Source: Escherichia phage AnYang. Taken from it: a DNA stretch of 64,000 nucleotides. Positions within the stretch are counted from its first letter, which is position 1. The number at the start of each line of letters is the position of its first letter. The DNA lies in sequence record MK234886, one strand, 5' to 3'. Positions 6,546 through 52,347 of this stretch are shown here, piece by piece. The notes under the pieces were generated by a model. The model saw only the letters and a list, made by a program, of their open reading frames with translations, did not search any database and had not been told where the DNA came from. Both the position numbers and the translations under genes were made by a program.

Positions 6546-6570
6546 TTTATTCTCCTTAGTTGATAAGGCT

Positions 6571-46031: not shown

Positions 46032-46039
46032 TATTTATA
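46032..46039 (-). promoter_or_regulatory. late promoter TATAAATA (soc)
   Basis: Minus-strand TATAAATA about 30 nt upstream of the soc ATG. Confidence 0.6.
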
Positions 46040-46730
46040 TATCTCTAAAAGAGTATATTAAATTTTTGAGAGCACTTGCGGTAACGTCATATTTACCTTT
46101 AAGTTCTTTGACTACAGGACCTGTAGTTGGTTTACCTAATGAAAGCCAAATATTATAGATTTCGCTTTTCAATGGTTCATGCCAATGAGGAGCAGTTCGT
46201 TGAGCTTTAGAAGTGGCTTCAGATATTAATTTATTCCCACCATTCTCATAAAACTCTTTCATTATTTCTGATTGACGAGCTTTACGTTCAGGCCTATTCT
46301 GAGCTATAGCTTGAGCCTTCCTCATTTTAATCTTAGTTTCAGGTTTATTTAATCTAAGCTTGTGCTCTATACACTGTTCTTCAGTCCATTTATGTCCTTC
46401 GCTGCCAGCGCCACCTGGTAATATATTCAAGCATTCGTTAGGATGCTTTTCTCTTATTTTGGCTATTAAAAGTCTTTCATGATTAAAAGATTCTTCTAAA
46501 TTTTGGTGGCCTACAAACCAACGTATTTTATATTTTAGACCATACTTTTTATACATATTCCATAAGATTTTGCCAGAACCTGGATATCTATCTTTATTTG
46601 GATTTAGTATAAAGGTTTCATGTTTACCACCATACCAAAAGACGCCTTTCGGCGTCCTAATTTTTATCAAATAAGTTCTATAAAACTTAGCCTTAATAGC
46701 CACGGTCCTGCCTTGCAAAGTTTTCAGCAT
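46035..46730 (-). CDS. putative GIY-YIG homing endonuclease, SegF-like by position
   Basis: 231 aa; N-terminal YLIKIRTPKGVFWYGGKHETF module; between 56 and soc where T4 has segF. Confidence 0.5.
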   Translation of the reverse strand: MLKTLQGRTVAIKAKFYRTYLIKIRTPKGVFWYGGKHETFILNPNKDRYPGSGKILWNMYKKYGLKYKIRWFVGHQNLEESFNHERLLIAKIREKHPNECLNILPGGAGSEGHKWTEEQCIEHKLRLNKPETKIKMRKAQAIAQNRPERKARQSEIMKEFYENGGNKLISEATSKAQRTAPHWHEPLKSEIYNIWLSLGKPTTGPVVKELKGKYDVTASALKNLIYSFRDI

Positions 46731-47304: not shown

Positions 47305-47505
47305 ATGGGTAGTATTTTTTACCAAATCTGGAAATTGGCCGAAAAGAAAGACAAGAAAATGATGTTAGGTTTTCTTGCGCTAGACGTATTCCTTTGGAAT
47401 CTTCTGGTAGTTCCTGTAGCCGCTAGCCAAGGTATAATTTTACCAGCGGTTACAATGGAACACGTGTTAAGCATAATTGGATTCTTTACCGGAATCCACG
47501 CTTAA
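47305..47505 (+). CDS. hypothetical small membrane protein (opposite strand to neighbours)
   Basis: 66 aa; strong RBS AGGAGG 5 nt before ATG; two hydrophobic segments; stop overlaps gp61 stop. Confidence 0.5.
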   Translation: MGSIFYQIWKLAEKKDKKMMLGFLALDVFLWNLLVVPVAASQGIILPAVTMEHVLSIIGFFTGIHA

Positions 47506-48530
47506 ATTTTGGAATATTTTGAAAGTCTCATTTTTGCCATTAGACCTTGGGCGATATTTGCTTTCATATATGCCAGTACATCATTTATATCGGCTTTATC
47601 TTTCATAACCATATCATTTATATCTTTAGAAGGCCATGGAGCCTTGTCCCAGAATAGAACCCTTTCGCCAGCATCAACTAATCGTTGCATACGCTTAATT
47701 GTGTCAGGATGGCGGGGTTCATTGTCCATTACCCAGGCACGAGTTTCTTTACACGGAACCATAGCCAAGTCCAACGACCCACCAGTAATTGCTATTGCAT
47801 TAGGTACGAATAATGAATCAATAGGACCTTCCATTACCCACACCAACTGACGTTCGTCAACTGTATCCATTCCATATATTTTTGTAGCTTGGTCATGAGC
47901 TTTTATTGTAATATATTTTTGTGGAGCATCTTTACGTAAGGCTCGACCCTGAAAACTTTCAATTTGTTTATTCTTATTGAAAATTGGAATAACCAAACGA
48001 GGTTCAGGCATTTCTTTAGAATAGGTCCCTGGATTCACAGAGTTAACTAATGCAGGCCATTCTTTAGTAAACCATAGCCGATTCCATTTGTTTTCAGGAA
48101 TGCAACGTAGTGTTACGTATTTGATGATAGGATGGTCCTTTGGCATCCTATCTAATCGTTCACAGAAATTAAGCTTTTCGATGACAGGCATCTTAGCTTT
48201 AATTTTTTCAGATATCTCCACCTTAGGTGCAGCTTGTCTCCCGAACGATTGCTCTTTATGTTTCTCAAGAATATATTCACGATATAAATCAGGCTCGTAT
48301 TCGTATAGATACTTCTTAATTCCTGCTGAATAGTCACAGTTAAAACAGTGCAGCATTACGGAGCCGTCATTAGCAGGATAGGCCCAAAAACGAGCTTTGT
48401 TCTCATCTTTTAGGGAGTCACCGCATACACGACAACGACAGTTTAATTTAAAATCACTACCAGTTACTTGTCTGAATTTAGGTTGGTAATTCAAGGCACG
48501 TACAGCAAATTCTCTATCGACATATGACAT
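47502..48530 (-). CDS. 61: DNA primase gp61
   Basis: 342 aa; N-terminal zinc ribbon (CRCRVCGD...CFNCDYS) and TOPRIM; T4 gp61-like. Confidence 0.9.
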   Translation of the reverse strand: MSYVDREFAVRALNYQPKFRQVTGSDFKLNCRCRVCGDSLKDENKARFWAYPANDGSVMLHCFNCDYSAGIKKYLYEYEPDLYREYILEKHKEQSFGRQAAPKVEISEKIKAKMPVIEKLNFCERLDRMPKDHPIIKYVTLRCIPENKWNRLWFTKEWPALVNSVNPGTYSKEMPEPRLVIPIFNKNKQIESFQGRALRKDAPQKYITIKAHDQATKIYGMDTVDERQLVWVMEGPIDSLFVPNAIAITGGSLDLAMVPCKETRAWVMDNEPRHPDTIKRMQRLVDAGERVLFWDKAPWPSKDINDMVMKDKADINDVLAYMKANIAQGLMAKMRLSKYSKI

Positions 48531-48568
48531 TATTTTTCCTTGGGCTCTAAATTAATAGAGCCATTATA

Positions 48569-48730
48569 TCATTCGTTTTCGGATTTTTCTTTACGCTTTT
48601 TAGATGGGATTTGTTCAGGCCCTTTGTTGACGACCGCGCCTGAGGTAGTTCCGGAGGCAATAGCAGTAGGATTACCACCTGCATCACCTGCGACCATATC
48701 TTCGTTCATAACTTCTTTAAAAGATTTCAT
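48569..48730 (-). CDS. hypothetical small protein
   Basis: Manual 53-aa ORF MKSFKEVMNEDMVAGDAGGNPTAIASGTTSGAVVNKGPEQIPSKKRKEKSENE. Confidence 0.3.
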   Translation of the reverse strand: MKSFKEVMNEDMVAGDAGGNPTAIASGTTSGAVVNKGPEQIPSKKRKEKSENE

Positions 48731-48746
48731 AGGCTCCTGGCCTTAT

Positions 48747-48938
48747 TTATATTACGAAAATAGCTTTATCACCATTTGCATCAGTGACTTCATAGGTATC
48801 TTCGTTGTAAAGTGGAATAATCCAAGTCACACCATCACCAGCAATAATATGGATAGCTTCTTGGTCTTTTGATACGATTTCATATTCTTCGAATAATTCG
48901 AATACAGAAATCTTAGAGCCCGTACACATTGCACTCAT
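48747..48938 (-). CDS. hypothetical protein
   Basis: 63-aa ORF. Confidence 0.4.
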   Translation of the reverse strand: MSAMCTGSKISVFELFEEYEIVSKDQEAIHIIAGDGVTWIIPLYNEDTYEVTDANGDKAIFVI

Positions 48939-49134
48939 ATTGTTCCCTTCTTTTAATCAGTTGACGATGAGCCTTTTTAAGTTTGCGAAGCTGACGTTTA
49001 GTTGGCCGCGCAACATAAGCTTGAGTAGTTACTCGTCCAAAAACACCGTACTTAGGTGAAGGAGAATCGATAAAGACTTCCCACTGACAAGAGTAACTAT
49101 ACACTGCTTTAGAGAATTGAGTTAAGACAAACAT
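48913..49134 (-). CDS. hypothetical basic-tailed protein (paralog of 49922-50161)
   Basis: 73 aa; shares WEV and ARPTKRQLRKLKK block with the other copy. Confidence 0.4.
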   Translation of the reverse strand: MFVLTQFSKAVYSYSCQWEVFIDSPSPKYGVFGRVTTQAYVARPTKRQLRKLKKAHRQLIKRREQYECNVYGL

Positions 49135-49135
49135 A

Positions 49136-49576
49136 TTAACCTCGATTCATAAAGGCATTAAAAATCTGGTCATCGATTGAATAAACCGGGGCCTCCAGAA
49201 TTTTCAACAGACTATTTTTGATGTACTTGCTAGGGATATCCATATTAACGCCGTCATTCAATTCGTTGTCCGGGAGGATGTCTTTAAATTCAAATCCATC
49301 AAACTCAACCTTGTCGGGAATACCTTCAGCGAAAAAATAAACCAATTGGTGCATTGCATTGCACGAAAATAATTTAGACCTCACCGCAATAAGTTCTTGC
49401 CAATGGTTTAATTCTCTGTTAAGAAGTTTATGAGCCATTGTAATTCTATCATCACTATCAACAAGAAAATAACCTAGGTATTGGTGGTCGTCGCTCCAAT
49501 ACATCCGGTATGCTTGTGCATTTGGATTTTTACAACGAAGTTTTTTGATAACTAAATTTCTGTTAATCTTATTCAC
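49136..49576 (-). CDS. hypothetical protein
   Basis: 146-aa ORF. Confidence 0.5.
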   Translation of the reverse strand: MNKINRNLVIKKLRCKNPNAQAYRMYWSDDHQYLGYFLVDSDDRITMAHKLLNRELNHWQELIAVRSKLFSCNAMHQLVYFFAEGIPDKVEFDGFEFKDILPDNELNDGVNMDIPSKYIKNSLLKILEAPVYSIDDQIFNAFMNRG

Positions 49577-49862
49577 CTGTCACCTCTTTAACGATATTTT
49601 TGTTATCGAAATTGGCATCGCAATACAAAACATAGTTATATTGCATAACACCACCTGAAGCTAATTGGTCTGACACTTCTTTAGCCATATTAGGGCGGTC
49701 GCGTTTAGTGATGTTCATGATATCGGCATAAATCTGGTGTTCAACCGATTCTTGGTCTGCAGTCATAGACCATTCACAAAGGTCTTTATCCAATCCAGCC
49801 GTAACTGGAGCCGTACCACATGATGCTACTGTAAGGATTGCTGCGATTAATAACTTTTTCAT
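49569..49862 (-). CDS. putative lipoprotein
   Basis: Track ORF trimmed to MKKLLIAAILTVASCG (signal peptide plus lipobox); promoter motif upstream. Confidence 0.55.
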   Translation of the reverse strand: MKKLLIAAILTVASCGTAPVTAGLDKDLCEWSMTADQESVEHQIYADIMNITKRDRPNMAKEVSDQLASGGVMQYNYVLYCDANFDNKNIVKEVTGE

Positions 49863-49890
49863 TTTTAACTCCTCGTTAGTTGATAGGTCT

Positions 49891-49920
49891 ATAGTATCAC
49901 TACCATAGACCGTTGTAAAC
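49891..49920 (-). promoter_or_regulatory. T4-type early promoter
   Basis: GTTTAC-N18-TACTATAGACCTATCAACTAACGAGGAG; perfect inverted repeat. Confidence 0.6.
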
Positions 49921-49921
49921 A

Positions 49922-50161
49922 CTATTTCAGCGAATCTTCCAAATAAATTTTACGGAATTTACGTTTTGTCTGACGAATCTGACGCTTAGTAGGCTTCACA
50001 GGAAAATCGAAGAACTCTACGTATTCTTGTTCATAATCGTTGTGACCGACTGAAAGAACCAGTTCCCAGTTGCTTACAGTACGTTGGATAAACATATTAT
50101 GCTTACCAAAGGATTTATTCCAAAAAGAACTAGGAGTTGGTTTCATTAATACAATATTCAT
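49922..50161 (-). CDS. hypothetical basic-tailed protein (paralog of 48913-49134)
   Basis: 79 aa; VKPTKRQIRQTKRKFRK block. Confidence 0.45.
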   Translation of the reverse strand: MNIVLMKPTPSSFWNKSFGKHNMFIQRTVSNWELVLSVGHNDYEQEYVEFFDFPVKPTKRQIRQTKRKFRKIYLEDSLK

Positions 50162-50302
50162 TTATTCCTCGCCTTCATGTTTATGGGCAATTTCTTCGAA
50201 TTCGCTGTCACAGTCTAAACAGGTTGCGTTATCCCAAGCATCAAATACCGCTTGGTCTTCGCAGACCGAACAACCACATACTACACATTCAAATTCTTCC
50301 AT
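50162..50302 (-). CDS. small Cys-rich zinc-ribbon-like protein
   Basis: Manual 46-aa ORF MEEFECVVCGCSVCEDQAVFDAWDNATCLDCDSEFEEIAHKHEGEE. Confidence 0.4.
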   Translation of the reverse strand: MEEFECVVCGCSVCEDQAVFDAWDNATCLDCDSEFEEIAHKHEGEE

Positions 50303-50506
50303 TTAGATTTCCTCAATGCGGGCATCATATTCAAAAACTTTATTGTCATCAACAAAGGCTTTCACCAGCGCATTATTCACTTCTGCATACTGCACTGTAA
50401 CCCATTCAATCATATTTTGGTCACTAACATCCAGAACGGTTTCTTTGGTAAACATATTACCATTTTCAAACCAACCAATAAACACTACTTTCTCTAATTT
50501 AGGCAT
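50303..50506 (-). CDS. hypothetical protein
   Basis: 67-aa ORF. Confidence 0.45.
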   Translation of the reverse strand: MPKLEKVVFIGWFENGNMFTKETVLDVSDQNMIEWVTVQYAEVNNALVKAFVDDNKVFEYDARIEEI

Positions 50507-50836
50507 TTAGATTTCCTCACAGAAAGCCCATTCGGCATGATAAACCGTAGCGCCTTTAGTATCATTTAAACAAACCACATCTACCGGAGCAATTACACGA
50601 TAAAGACGGGGTTCTCCTCCCACTGAACGAGCTGCACGTCCAGCATAAATCTTAGCCAAACCGATATCTTCAGTAAAGAACACACGATTTAGGTTTTTCT
50701 TACGACCGGTTTCAGACAAAACTCCTGTTTCCTCAGGAGGACAAAGCATATTACCGATATTAGCAACACTACAACTTCCATGATAATACACTTTATATTC
50801 TGCTTTACAGTCGATGGTTTTCATTTTGTTCTCCAA
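50507..50836 (-). CDS. hypothetical protein with possible H-Y-E ADP-ribosyltransferase-like motifs
   Basis: 109 aa; VYYHGS, FFTEDIGLAKIYAG and YHAEW resemble the HGS / aromatic / E elements of PARP-type folds; speculative; first gene after the gp41 terminator and a promoter motif. Confidence 0.5.
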   Translation of the reverse strand: MENKMKTIDCKAEYKVYYHGSCSVANIGNMLCPPEETGVLSETGRKKNLNRVFFTEDIGLAKIYAGRAARSVGGEPRLYRVIAPVDVVCLNDTKGATVYHAEWAFCEEI

Positions 50837-50848
50837 GTTGATAGGTCT

Positions 50849-50877
50849 ATAGTATCACGCCTACAGGAGATGTAAAC
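50849..50877 (-). promoter_or_regulatory. T4-type early promoter
   Basis: GTTTAC-N17-TACTATAGACCTATCAACTTGGAGAAC; directly after the gp41 terminator. Confidence 0.6.
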
Positions 50878-50887
50878 CCTTAAAAAC

Positions 50888-50907
50888 AAAAAAGGAGCCG
50901 AAGCTCC
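50888..50907 (-). terminator. intrinsic terminator after gene 41
   Basis: GGAGC-UUCG-GCUCC followed by UUUUUU, immediately after the gp41 stop. Confidence 0.65.
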
Positions 50908-52347
50908 TTAAAATTTGATAGATGCGGCTAAATCGTCCAAATCACTTCTATTAACACGCGTCTGTCGATTGACCTCGGCTTGACGATTCATCTCACCTGT
51001 AGCCTCACGAACAGTGTTCACTGGACCTGGATTGGAATCATCTTCAACTTCGTACCAACGTTGATTTCCTTTCTTAACACCAATCTTAAATTTGTTGTAG
51101 TAGCTCTTATCACCATAACGAGATTTAAGCTGCTTAACCATCTGCATACCCATTTGGGCAAACTCTTCTGTCTCGACCACACCTAACATGAAGTCTGCAG
51201 TATGTGCAATACCAAAGGATTCGGCAATATCAGCCATATCGATTTCGGCTGCAACGTTCGCACCACGAGTAGTCTGGGCTGCAGTCCACAACAATAATTT
51301 CTTTTCTACTGCAAGTCCACGTAGTTCTTCGGCTACCATCTTAATCAATCCGTAACTGTTTTCAGAGAAAACTTTCGTACGAGACGATGCACAGATGGCC
51401 AAGTAGTCGACGATAACGACCTGTGGGACAAAGTTTTGTTTGAGCTTATATTCGTTTAATAATGCACGGAATGTATCGGCATTAGCACCACCAGTAGGGT
51501 ACTGTTTAATCTTTAAACGTCCTAAGGTAGCAGTCGAACGCCATTTATCCATCTTAGCTTTATATTCAGGCCATGATACGTGACCATCATCGATATCATC
51601 CAGTGACACATCCAGAAGGTTGGCATCGATACGCTTAGCACATACTTCCTCTGCCATCTCCATGGAGATATAAAGAACATCGTAACCAGATTGAAGGTAA
51701 TCAGCAGCCAATGAACACAGACCAAGAGACTTACCTACGTTTGTTCCTGCCAACAATACGTTTTCAGTACCAAACTCGGCACCACCTTTAGTAATCTTAT
51801 TCAGAATATTAAGACGGAACGGAACCTTACGTGCTTTATCGGAATAACTTTTGAATCGTTCTTCATAGTCATCCATCCAGTCATGACCTAATTCAGAATC
51901 GAAACAAATCGATAATGCATCACGCATGATATCTGGAATAGCGCCAATACCTGGAAGTTTTCTATTTTGTTGCTCAACCGGAAGGTCTGCATTAGTTTGG
52001 ATTTCAATGATTTTTGAAGTTGCATTATACATCGCTGCTTTCTGAACGTATTTCTCCGTCTCTTTAACCAACCATTCTTGGTCTTCAGGTCCAGCATTCA
52101 GTGAGCTTAAAAGCTCTTTAGCTCCTTGATGTTCGACTTCTGAAAGCGTGCTGTTATCTAATGCAATGCTCAATGCGTTCTTAGAAGGCACTGCATTATA
52201 TTCATTGACGTGTTTTTTAATTTCTTTGAAAAGGGTCTTTGCAGGACCCTGGTCAAAATAAGAATCATTCATATAAGGCCAGACCTTAGTGAAATAATCA
52301 CTATTGCCTAGCAGTTGAGCCAAAATAGTTTCTACCACTTCCACCAC
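50908..52347 (-). CDS. 41: replicative DNA helicase gp41 (DnaB family)
   Basis: 479 aa; size and synteny as T4 gp41. Confidence 0.9.
   Translation of the reverse strand: MVEVVETILAQLLGNSDYFTKVWPYMNDSYFDQGPAKTLFKEIKKHVNEYNAVPSKNALSIALDNSTLSEVEHQGAKELLSSLNAGPEDQEWLVKETEKYVQKAAMYNATSKIIEIQTNADLPVEQQNRKLPGIGAIPDIMRDALSICFDSELGHDWMDDYEERFKSYSDKARKVPFRLNILNKITKGGAEFGTENVLLAGTNVGKSLGLCSLAADYLQSGYDVLYISMEMAEEVCAKRIDANLLDVSLDDIDDGHVSWPEYKAKMDKWRSTATLGRLKIKQYPTGGANADTFRALLNEYKLKQNFVPQVVIVDYLAICASSRTKVFSENSYGLIKMVAEELRGLAVEKKLLLWTAAQTTRGANVAAEIDMADIAESFGIAHTADFMLGVVETEEFAQMGMQMVKQLKSRYGDKSYYNKFKIGVKKGNQRWYEVEDDSNPGPVNTVREATGEMNRQAEVNRQTRVNRSDLDDLAASIKF

Follow-up and report, generated by a model that had tools for sequence, protein, structure and literature searches.

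What kind of locus separates the primase gene (61) from the helicase gene (41) in Escherichia phage AnYang, and was it acquired as a block or inherited in place? The question was raised by a preliminary description of a 64,000-nt stretch of this genome (MK234886; hereafter the window, in whose positions all coordinates are given), which took the interval 48569-50836 for an accessory island, inserted where T4 has two adjoining genes. Judged from its sequence, the phage is a JS98-like T4-type coliphage (Dhakavirus), and the interval is in all likelihood the allele that Dhakavirus has of the conserved T4-type early cluster 61.1-dmd (the 'anti-TA island'), arranged in two immediate-early units, and not an insertion. 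It holds nine contiguous minus-strand open reading frames (ORFs) with a coding density of about 92 %, lies between genes 61 and 41 and is co-oriented with both:

50908-52347, minus strand: helicase gene 41, flank of the island
50507-50824, minus strand: gene A, 105 aa
50303-50506, minus strand: gene B, dmd orthologue, 67 aa
50162-50302, minus strand: gene C, 46 aa
49922-50161, minus strand: gene D, 61.4/tifA orthologue, 79 aa
49569-49862, minus strand: gene E, sp (Spackle, 61.3) orthologue, 97 aa
49136-49576, minus strand: gene F, in the adfA (61.2) slot, 146 aa
48913-49134, minus strand: gene G, second TifA-family paralogue, 73 aa
48747-48938, minus strand: gene H, 63 aa, overlapping G by 26 nt
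48569-48730, minus strand: gene I, 61.1 orthologue, 53 aa
47502-48530: primase gene 61, flank of the island

That all nine are real genes under purifying selection follows from their ratios of nonsynonymous to synonymous substitution rates (dN/dS), which range from 0.00 to 0.37 against homologues and thus stay below 0.4 even for the three smallest, together with a PHROG family match for each (E=1e-25 to 1e-94). The count of about nine small minus-strand genes between 61 and 41 in the preliminary description is borne out, while several supposed orphans among them are not, as homologues occur in other T4-type phages for every ORF. Doubt could most readily attach to C, H and 61.1, which at 46-63 aa and without a Pfam match might be chance reading frames in a leader or spacer instead of genes, the more so as C is unannotated in JS98 and JS10. 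Their substitution pattern (dN/dS of 0.02-0.16 at a synonymous divergence, dS, of up to 0.8-2.1), however, contradicts such an origin, their PHROG matches reach E=1e-31 to 1e-33, they are kept across genera, and their starts and stops are tightly coupled to the neighboring genes, all of which leaves chance frames hardly credible.

The premise of an insertion fails on the annotation of T4, in which genes 61 and 41 are not adjacent but are separated by five genes, namely 61.1, 61.2 (adfA), sp, 61.4 (tifA) and dmd. Four of the nine AnYang genes are orthologues of these (61.1, Spackle, TifA and Dmd), and the order A-dmd-C-tifA-sp-...-61.1 parallels dmd-61.4-sp-61.2-61.1 in T4; the JS98 annotation of the same interval already names 61.1, sp, 61.4 and dmd. 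The interval is ancestral and syntenic. A lineage-specific accessory island could still appeal to A, C, F, G and H (five of the nine), which lack a full-length T4 counterpart, yet the collinear T4 interval refutes it already, and the slot is populated elsewhere as well, with 4 genes in TG1, 5 in T4, 6 each in PM2 and IME523, 9 in AnYang, 11 each in RB69 and VR7, and at least 13 in Acinetobacter phage 133. Nor does base composition carry a signature of foreign DNA (GC content of 0.35-0.41 in the island versus 0.36-0.45 in its flanks), and we consider an insertion extremely improbable. PADLOC returned no meaningful match.

Over 48400-51000, Escherichia phage C6 is 97.4 % identical, and JS98, IME08 and other Dhakavirus genomes are 93-95 % identical; altogether, this span is matched by 190 phage records, 55 of them with at least 80 % query coverage. 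The feature is real and belongs to a known kind of locus, and its exact gene set occurs in dozens of sequenced Dhakaviruses.

For T4, Srikant, Guegler & Laub (2022, PMC9391042) proposed that the interval be regarded as an 'anti-TA island'; it comprises dmd (anti-RnlA/LsoA), tifA=61.4 (anti-ToxN), adfA=61.2 (anti-DarT) and sp. The AnYang interval shares with it the position between 61 and 41, the strand, the gene order, orthologues of 61.1, sp, tifA and dmd, an early promoter (predicted in AnYang) ahead of the unit that holds dmd and tifA, and rearrangements driven by microhomology. It differs in having nine genes instead of five, in encoding a 146-aa protein that carries the AdfA tail and a weak N-terminal motif in place of the full-length adfA of T4, and in possessing a second TifA paralogue, an Arr-like ADP-ribosyltransferase (ART), a Cys-rich peptide and an ORF033c-like gene that T4 lacks. 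RB69 (Mosigvirus) has A (89 % identity), H (68 %), dmd, tifA, sp and 61.1 in common with AnYang and additionally contains imm, imm.1, ORF032c, ORF041c and a full-length adfA. VR7 (Gaprivervirus) shares the gene families of the island, C excepted, with G and H being 96 % and 90 % identical, respectively, and additionally encodes a 119-aa tail-sharing '61.2', ORF042c and ORF045c. The suggestion that the layout resembles hyperplastic regions with anti-defence genes is supported in substance, including its variable gene content, although this reading has already been published for the homologous T4 interval (PMC9391042).

The proposed division into two transcription units is based on a search for the T4-type early promoter pattern GTTTACW-N12-15-TGnTAYWAT, which gave 13 matches on the minus strand of the window where 0.02 would be expected by chance; two of these lie in the island. 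The punctuation by a terminator and promoters that the preliminary description had noticed is present in the form of one terminator and these two matches:

50892-50909, minus strand: intrinsic terminator downstream of gene 41, AAGGAGC-UUCG-GCUCCUU with a U run behind it, -10.5 kcal/mol, z = -3.3
50849-50877, minus strand: PE1, predicted T4-type early promoter, GTTTACA N13 TGATACTAT, upstream of A, dmd, C and tifA
49891-49920, minus strand: PE2, predicted T4-type early promoter, GTTTACA N14 TGATACTAT, upstream of sp

From PE1, a first transcript would cover A (the Arr-like ART), dmd, C (the Cys-rich peptide) and tifA/61.4 (D), and from PE2, a second would cover sp, F, G, H and 61.1 and probably read through into the primase gene 61. 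A MotA-box middle promoter was not found in the island, and an Rfam search of the island gave nothing below E=0.1. The terminator and PE1 together (50909-50849) form a composite of the PeSL type, in which a terminator stem-loop is followed by an early promoter. As in the published PeSL cassettes (Arbiol 2010; Comeau 2014, PMC4122927), the stem-loop is succeeded by TTTACW-N17-TAYWAT at the boundary between gene 41 and A, and a near-identical promoter-leader cassette recurs seven times in the window; in contrast to these, PE2 has no stem-loop, and the indels observed in relatives lie at microhomologies of stop/start junctions, not at promoter cassettes. In ABTNLsp5, the boundary that holds the PeSL composite here contains an extra gene between gene 41 and A.

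PE1 and PE2 have an exact 23-nt -10/leader repeat in common. As a special element flanking A-dmd-C-tifA this repeat was rejected, since it belongs to the early promoter/leader cassette that the phage uses in general and that is present seven times in the window. As a 22-nt sequence, TGATACTATAGACCTATCAACT, this early -10/leader cassette is found on the minus strand at 6558, 25416, 25715, 28843, 42484, 49878 and 50836, with four of the seven copies exact, and its conservation runs about 15 nt into the transcribed leader, beyond what a promoter needs.

The functions considered for the island proteins are those reported for the T4 and RB69 orthologues, and we infer their transfer to AnYang from orthology. 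The products would act independently of each other, just after DNA entry. B matches the Dmd family PF17587 (E=5e-22; 78.4 bits versus a cut-off of 27 bits), is 60 % identical to T4 Dmd and shows 23 invariant columns in an alignment of five homologues, one of them a dmd_2 paralogue. T4 Dmd is an antitoxin against RnlA/LsoA (PMC9391042), and the AnYang protein would likewise bind and neutralize RNase toxins of the RnlA/LsoA type.

D and G both match PF23945 (DUF7279), with E=2e-19 (69.6 bits) and E=4e-19 (68.6 bits), respectively, at a cut-off of 24.5 bits. In both proteins (VKPTKRQIRQTKRKFRK in D and ARPTKRQLRKLKKAHRQ in G), the TifA motif, PT followed by a basic helix as defined for this family (PMC10853763), reads PTKRQ[IL]R, which agrees with their earlier description as two paralogous basic-tailed proteins. 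TifA-family proteins would bind RNA and trap ToxN-type RNases. For D, which is 52 % identical to T4 TifA in a global alignment, no published test on ToxN was found. G is identical in 72 of 73 residues to tifA_vB_EcoM_005, which was expressed and yet neutralized neither any of six ToxN homologues nor TenpN (PMC10853763); by analogy, G probably has a target other than ToxN.

The protein that had been described as a lipoprotein with its own promoter is Spackle (E; PF25676, E=1e-42, 145 bits; 70 % identical to T4 Sp). Of the earlier description, the promoter holds in the form of the predicted PE2, whereas the lipoprotein is not supported, T4 Sp being soluble in the periplasm. N-terminal sequencing revealed the removal of 22 residues from T4 Sp, which inhibits the gp5 lysozyme (PMC7650644); E keeps the A22/G23 junction, i.e. 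the cleavage site of T4 Sp, as well as Cys29 and Cys81, all of them invariant in the alignment. By the mechanism known from T4 (PMC7650644, PMC7677548), Spackle would be exported and block the gp5 tail lysozyme. A lipobox-like [LAV][AV]SC occurs in Spackle signal peptides, and its Ser14-Cys15 is invariant in four aligned orthologues despite cleavage after residue 22 in T4.

Gene F (phrog_8539) occupies the position of adfA, and its relation to that gene is concentrated in its end. The last 14 residues, SIDDQIFNAFMNRG, are identical to the tail of T4 AdfA in 14 of 14 positions and to that of RB69 in 13 of 14, and the match to the AdfA Pfam model (16.3 bits; cut-off 27 bits) is confined to model positions 198-211. 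As the DNA encoding this tail differs between F and AdfA by synonymous changes, the tail peptide itself is under selection. It is common to three PHROG families, AdfA (phrog_3781), F and a protein of 116-119 aa (phrog_4122), all of which sit in the adfA slot downstream of sp. Aligned to AdfA by hhalign, F reached a probability of 97 % as long as the tail was included, and E=0.03 once it had been removed, the similarity left outside the tail being a K-x-PNAQxY motif near the N-terminus. In the AlphaFold2 (AF2) model of F, a confident β-rich N-domain (residues 1-98) is followed by 48 C-terminal residues of low confidence that form a helical tail, and a fold search against viral models retrieved the own family and one tail-sharing protein of 118 aa and did not find AdfA. 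An assignment of F as AdfA proper was rejected on account of the tail-less hhalign value and this fold search. F is an AdfA-tail protein and possibly a divergent relative of AdfA, and because AdfA's genomic slot, the N-terminal motif and the exact C-terminal tail are kept, it may be a toxin-binding inhibitor related to AdfA.

Gene content at this locus differs between T4-type genera and even among near-identical Dhakaviruses, as the suggested comparison with relatives for presence and absence reveals. G is missing from JS10; a second Dmd paralogue (dmd_2; PF17587, E=3e-15, 55-57 % identical) lies between A and dmd in fDHCT2 and ABTNLsp5, at local coordinates 2411-2605 and 2408-2602, respectively; ABTNLsp5 has an additional 125-aa gene adjoining gene 41; and UGJNEcP3 has an additional phrog_4122 gene as well as a divergent D. 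The preliminary description had named a single gene set of known functions, kept here by all T4-like phages, as the finding fatal to its reading; the varying content shows otherwise. The indels are clean and of gene size: that of G is bounded by AATATG, and that of dmd_2 is bounded by a 16-nt junction repeat, TGAGGAAATCTAAATG, whose flanking of the extra gene is seen in fDHCT2. In AnYang, this repeat, which contains a Shine-Dalgarno sequence, a stop and a start, occurs twice:

50504-50519, minus strand: 16-nt junction repeat at A/dmd
50300-50315, minus strand: 16-nt junction repeat at dmd/C

Microhomology-driven amplification of dmd-tifA has been seen experimentally in T4 (PMC9391042), and by analogy the indel junctions of the AnYang group match it. 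Genes would accordingly turn over by gain and loss of gene-sized cassettes with breakpoints at microhomologies in stop/start junctions; the repeated promoter cassettes, at which no indel was found, may also serve as a substrate for recombination. Between Dhakavirus and VR7, dS amounts to 0.7-0.9 for A, F, G and H and to 1.6-2.3 or saturation for sp, dmd, 61.1, D, gp41 and gp61, which hints at a more recent exchange of some cassettes, the estimates being noisy for genes this short.

Several observations weigh against an anti-defence cluster. PE1 and PE2 are consensus matches only; the near-identical homologue of G was inactive on six ToxN homologues and on TenpN; a Spackle study saw no effect on phage titre and proposed that the protein mainly controls free gp5 (PMC7650644); F stays below the AdfA Pfam cut-off, with the tail-less profile similarity and the missed AdfA in the fold search given above; and A lies elsewhere in the genomes of Klebsiella and Aeromonas phages (close to srd in KP27 and Aes508). 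In addition, A and 61.1 show stronger conservation than the replication genes on either side, which is unusual for genes in an arms race: A is 89 % identical to its RB69 homologue, as compared to 63-68 % for gp61 and gp41. Such conservation between genera, the presence of 61.1 in all T4-type genomes compared in one survey (PMC1524935) and the probable reading of PE2 transcripts into gene 61 would also suit a set of genes that assist the primase-helicase machinery or nucleic-acid metabolism and lie there for co-expression. The characterized members dmd, tifA, adfA and sp, however, have no replication role, A turns up at unrelated loci when other genera are compared, and the gene content is too variable for a component of a machine, so that we consider this explanation improbable and retain the Dhakavirus allele of the 'anti-TA island' as the reading that fits best.

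Gene A (JS98 orf34/RB69 ORF040c; phrog_2110) is absent from the T4 interval and had been described as an ART-like protein. On its own, it scores 15.1 bits against the Pfam family Arr-ms (PF12120), below the cut-off of 25 bits; its AF2 model, by contrast, is confident (mean predicted local distance difference test score, pLDDT, of 86) and has an ART fold closest to Arr, the best structural matches being Arr and KptA (Foldseek probability of 1.0 for Arr, 9iaf). A profile of A run against 1.84 billion representative proteins retrieved 244 relatives, many of which (profile E=1e-23 to 1e-31) pass the Arr-ms cut-off with 26-35 bits, and the ART assignment accordingly stands on the modelled fold and on these relatives. 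Searches of PDB sequences with the A profile and with a distant member returned nothing relevant, and the link to Arr thus comes from fold comparison and profile-retrieved relatives only. The Arr-ms matches of A and its relatives always lie at model positions 1-66/70 of 99, i.e. the C-terminal third is absent.

Catalysis in ARTs of the H-Y-[EDQ] clade relies on a His in strand 1, a Tyr in strand 2 and an acidic residue in strand 5. In the family of A, HG[TS] (H15-G16-[TS]17, strand 1) is found in 142 of 142 sequences, E38 and R41 are conserved to 97-98 %, and strand 2 contains F49 (139 F, 9 Y), at a position where Arr presumably has Tyr. At or above about 90 % are HG[TS], P29, E38, R41, V48, F49, T51, A57, Y60, A61, G69, G70, G91 and A100, most of them nearly invariant. 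An invariant acidic residue was not found in the strand 5 region, where D82 is D or E in about 58 %. With Arr, KptA and AcrF11, A shares the ART fold and the invariant HG[ST] in strand 1; it differs from Arr in its length (105 versus about 140 aa) and from KptA in the lack of the N-terminal RNA-binding lobe. Both the predicted fold and the company of domains related to NAD or ADP-ribose argue for A being an NAD+-using enzyme.

A homologues are widespread, occurring in 608 phage records (from Escherichia, Klebsiella, Acinetobacter, Aeromonas and Vibrio phages), mostly at 60-100 % identity; in Acinetobacter phage 133, TG1, PM2, VR7 and RB69, they fall within the 41-61.1 interval. Among 149 relatives examined, 53 exceed 200 aa, and in such longer proteins the A-type domain neighbors ART-PolyVal, NUDIX, GNAT, Toprim and CHAP domains, a lambda-type portal with a 2H phosphoesterase, and a minor-tail domain. 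Individual fusions combine it with a lambda-type portal and 2H phosphoesterase, with ART-PolyVal and NUDIX, or with a minor-tail (tape-measure-like) protein of 3924 aa. Fusions to proteins of the portal and tail type imply delivery with the virion in other phages. This is the architecture of the injected polyvalent proteins known from phages and conjugative elements (Iyer et al. 2017, PMC5512222), and the domain recurs in proteins of 250-3900 aa built like effectors delivered on injection; in T4-type phages, in contrast, A is a solo gene with a predicted immediate-early promoter and not part of a giant packaged protein.

No functional study of RB69 ORF040c or of Arr-like phage proteins was found in the literature. 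As part of the cluster, A would be an NAD+-using ADP-ribosyltransferase that modifies a conserved target of the host or its defences at the very start of infection. It might instead be an enzyme of host takeover whose substrates are conserved host machinery or RNA ends, comparable to Alt/ModA/ModB or to RNA repair of the KptA type, and a mere passenger of the island without a counter-defence role. This strikes us as unlikely, since A with its 105 aa lacks the RNA-binding lobe of KptA, the small ART AcrF11 provides a precedent for an anti-defence role, and the dmd-tifA operon of AnYang begins with A, whose activity is a prediction. Leaving the choice between counter-defence and takeover aside, a wider proposal may be put forward tentatively: A could represent an unstudied family of ARTs of the Arr/KptA clade that are minimal in size (about 100 aa), deployed across the Straboviridae as an immediate-early solo protein or elsewhere as one module within injected polyvalent proteins, and modifying a conserved host small molecule, a nucleic-acid end or a defence protein, and AdfA, F and phrog_4122 could be cassettes that couple one invariant C-terminal peptide to interchangeable bodies for toxin recognition.

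T4-type phages would thus keep a fixed early slot beside essential replication genes in which genes against toxins and superinfection are swapped as cassettes, and such a slot may be useful for predicting the host range of therapeutic phages. Its practical value lies in the uncharacterized members, i.e. the widespread Arr-like ART domain, the TifA paralogue inactive on ToxN, and the AdfA-tail proteins, which may recognize other DarT-like toxins. These members, above all the Arr-like mini-ART, are also the residual novelty of the locus; they are candidates and not a discovery, and current concepts are unchanged.

The remaining members are small. C, the previously noted Cys-rich peptide of 46 aa, is present as a gene, acidic (CxxCxC...CxxC; phrog_13952; unannotated in JS98) and found in 68 phage records with a dN/dS of 0.02-0.03; A immediately precedes it in Pectobacterium phage PM2 and Enterobacter phage IME523. 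C6, C9, C11, C28 and C31 are invariant among four homologues from two genera, and C14 is not; from this pattern, a zinc ribbon with two CxxC knuckles is plausible. H belongs to the RB69 ORF033c family (phrog_3249). The 61.1 orthologue is 79 % identical to that of T4 and conserved across T4-type phages, where 61.1 ranks among the conserved ORFs without known function (PMC1524935).

A few observations concern the surroundings of the island. Beyond gene 41 follow gene 40 and then uvsX. Gene 41 itself, read from a GTG start, encodes 479 aa in AnYang as in C6, and its annotated start in JS98/JS10 lies 24 codons downstream (454 aa), which is probably a mere difference in annotation. At the other end, a hairpin is located between 61.1 and gene 61, just upstream of the ribosome-binding site of the latter, and could be an element of RNA processing, stability or translation; two further genes lie beyond the primase:

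48540-48560, minus strand: 7-bp hairpin GGCUCUA/UAGAGCC without a U tract, -12.1 kcal/mol, z = -3.15
47305-47505, plus strand: gene for a 66-aa hydrophobic protein (phrog_2024), between 56 and 61
46035-46730, minus strand: 231-aa homing-endonuclease ORF (phrog_314, E=9e-20), overlapping the 3' end of gene 56

The homing-endonuclease ORF occupies the same slot as segF in T4 and is absent from C6 and JS98, where gene 56 directly follows soc. The gene for the hydrophobic protein is the sole plus-strand gene nearby; T4 has dam there, and RB69 ORF029w and VR7 ORF033w hold the equivalent position.

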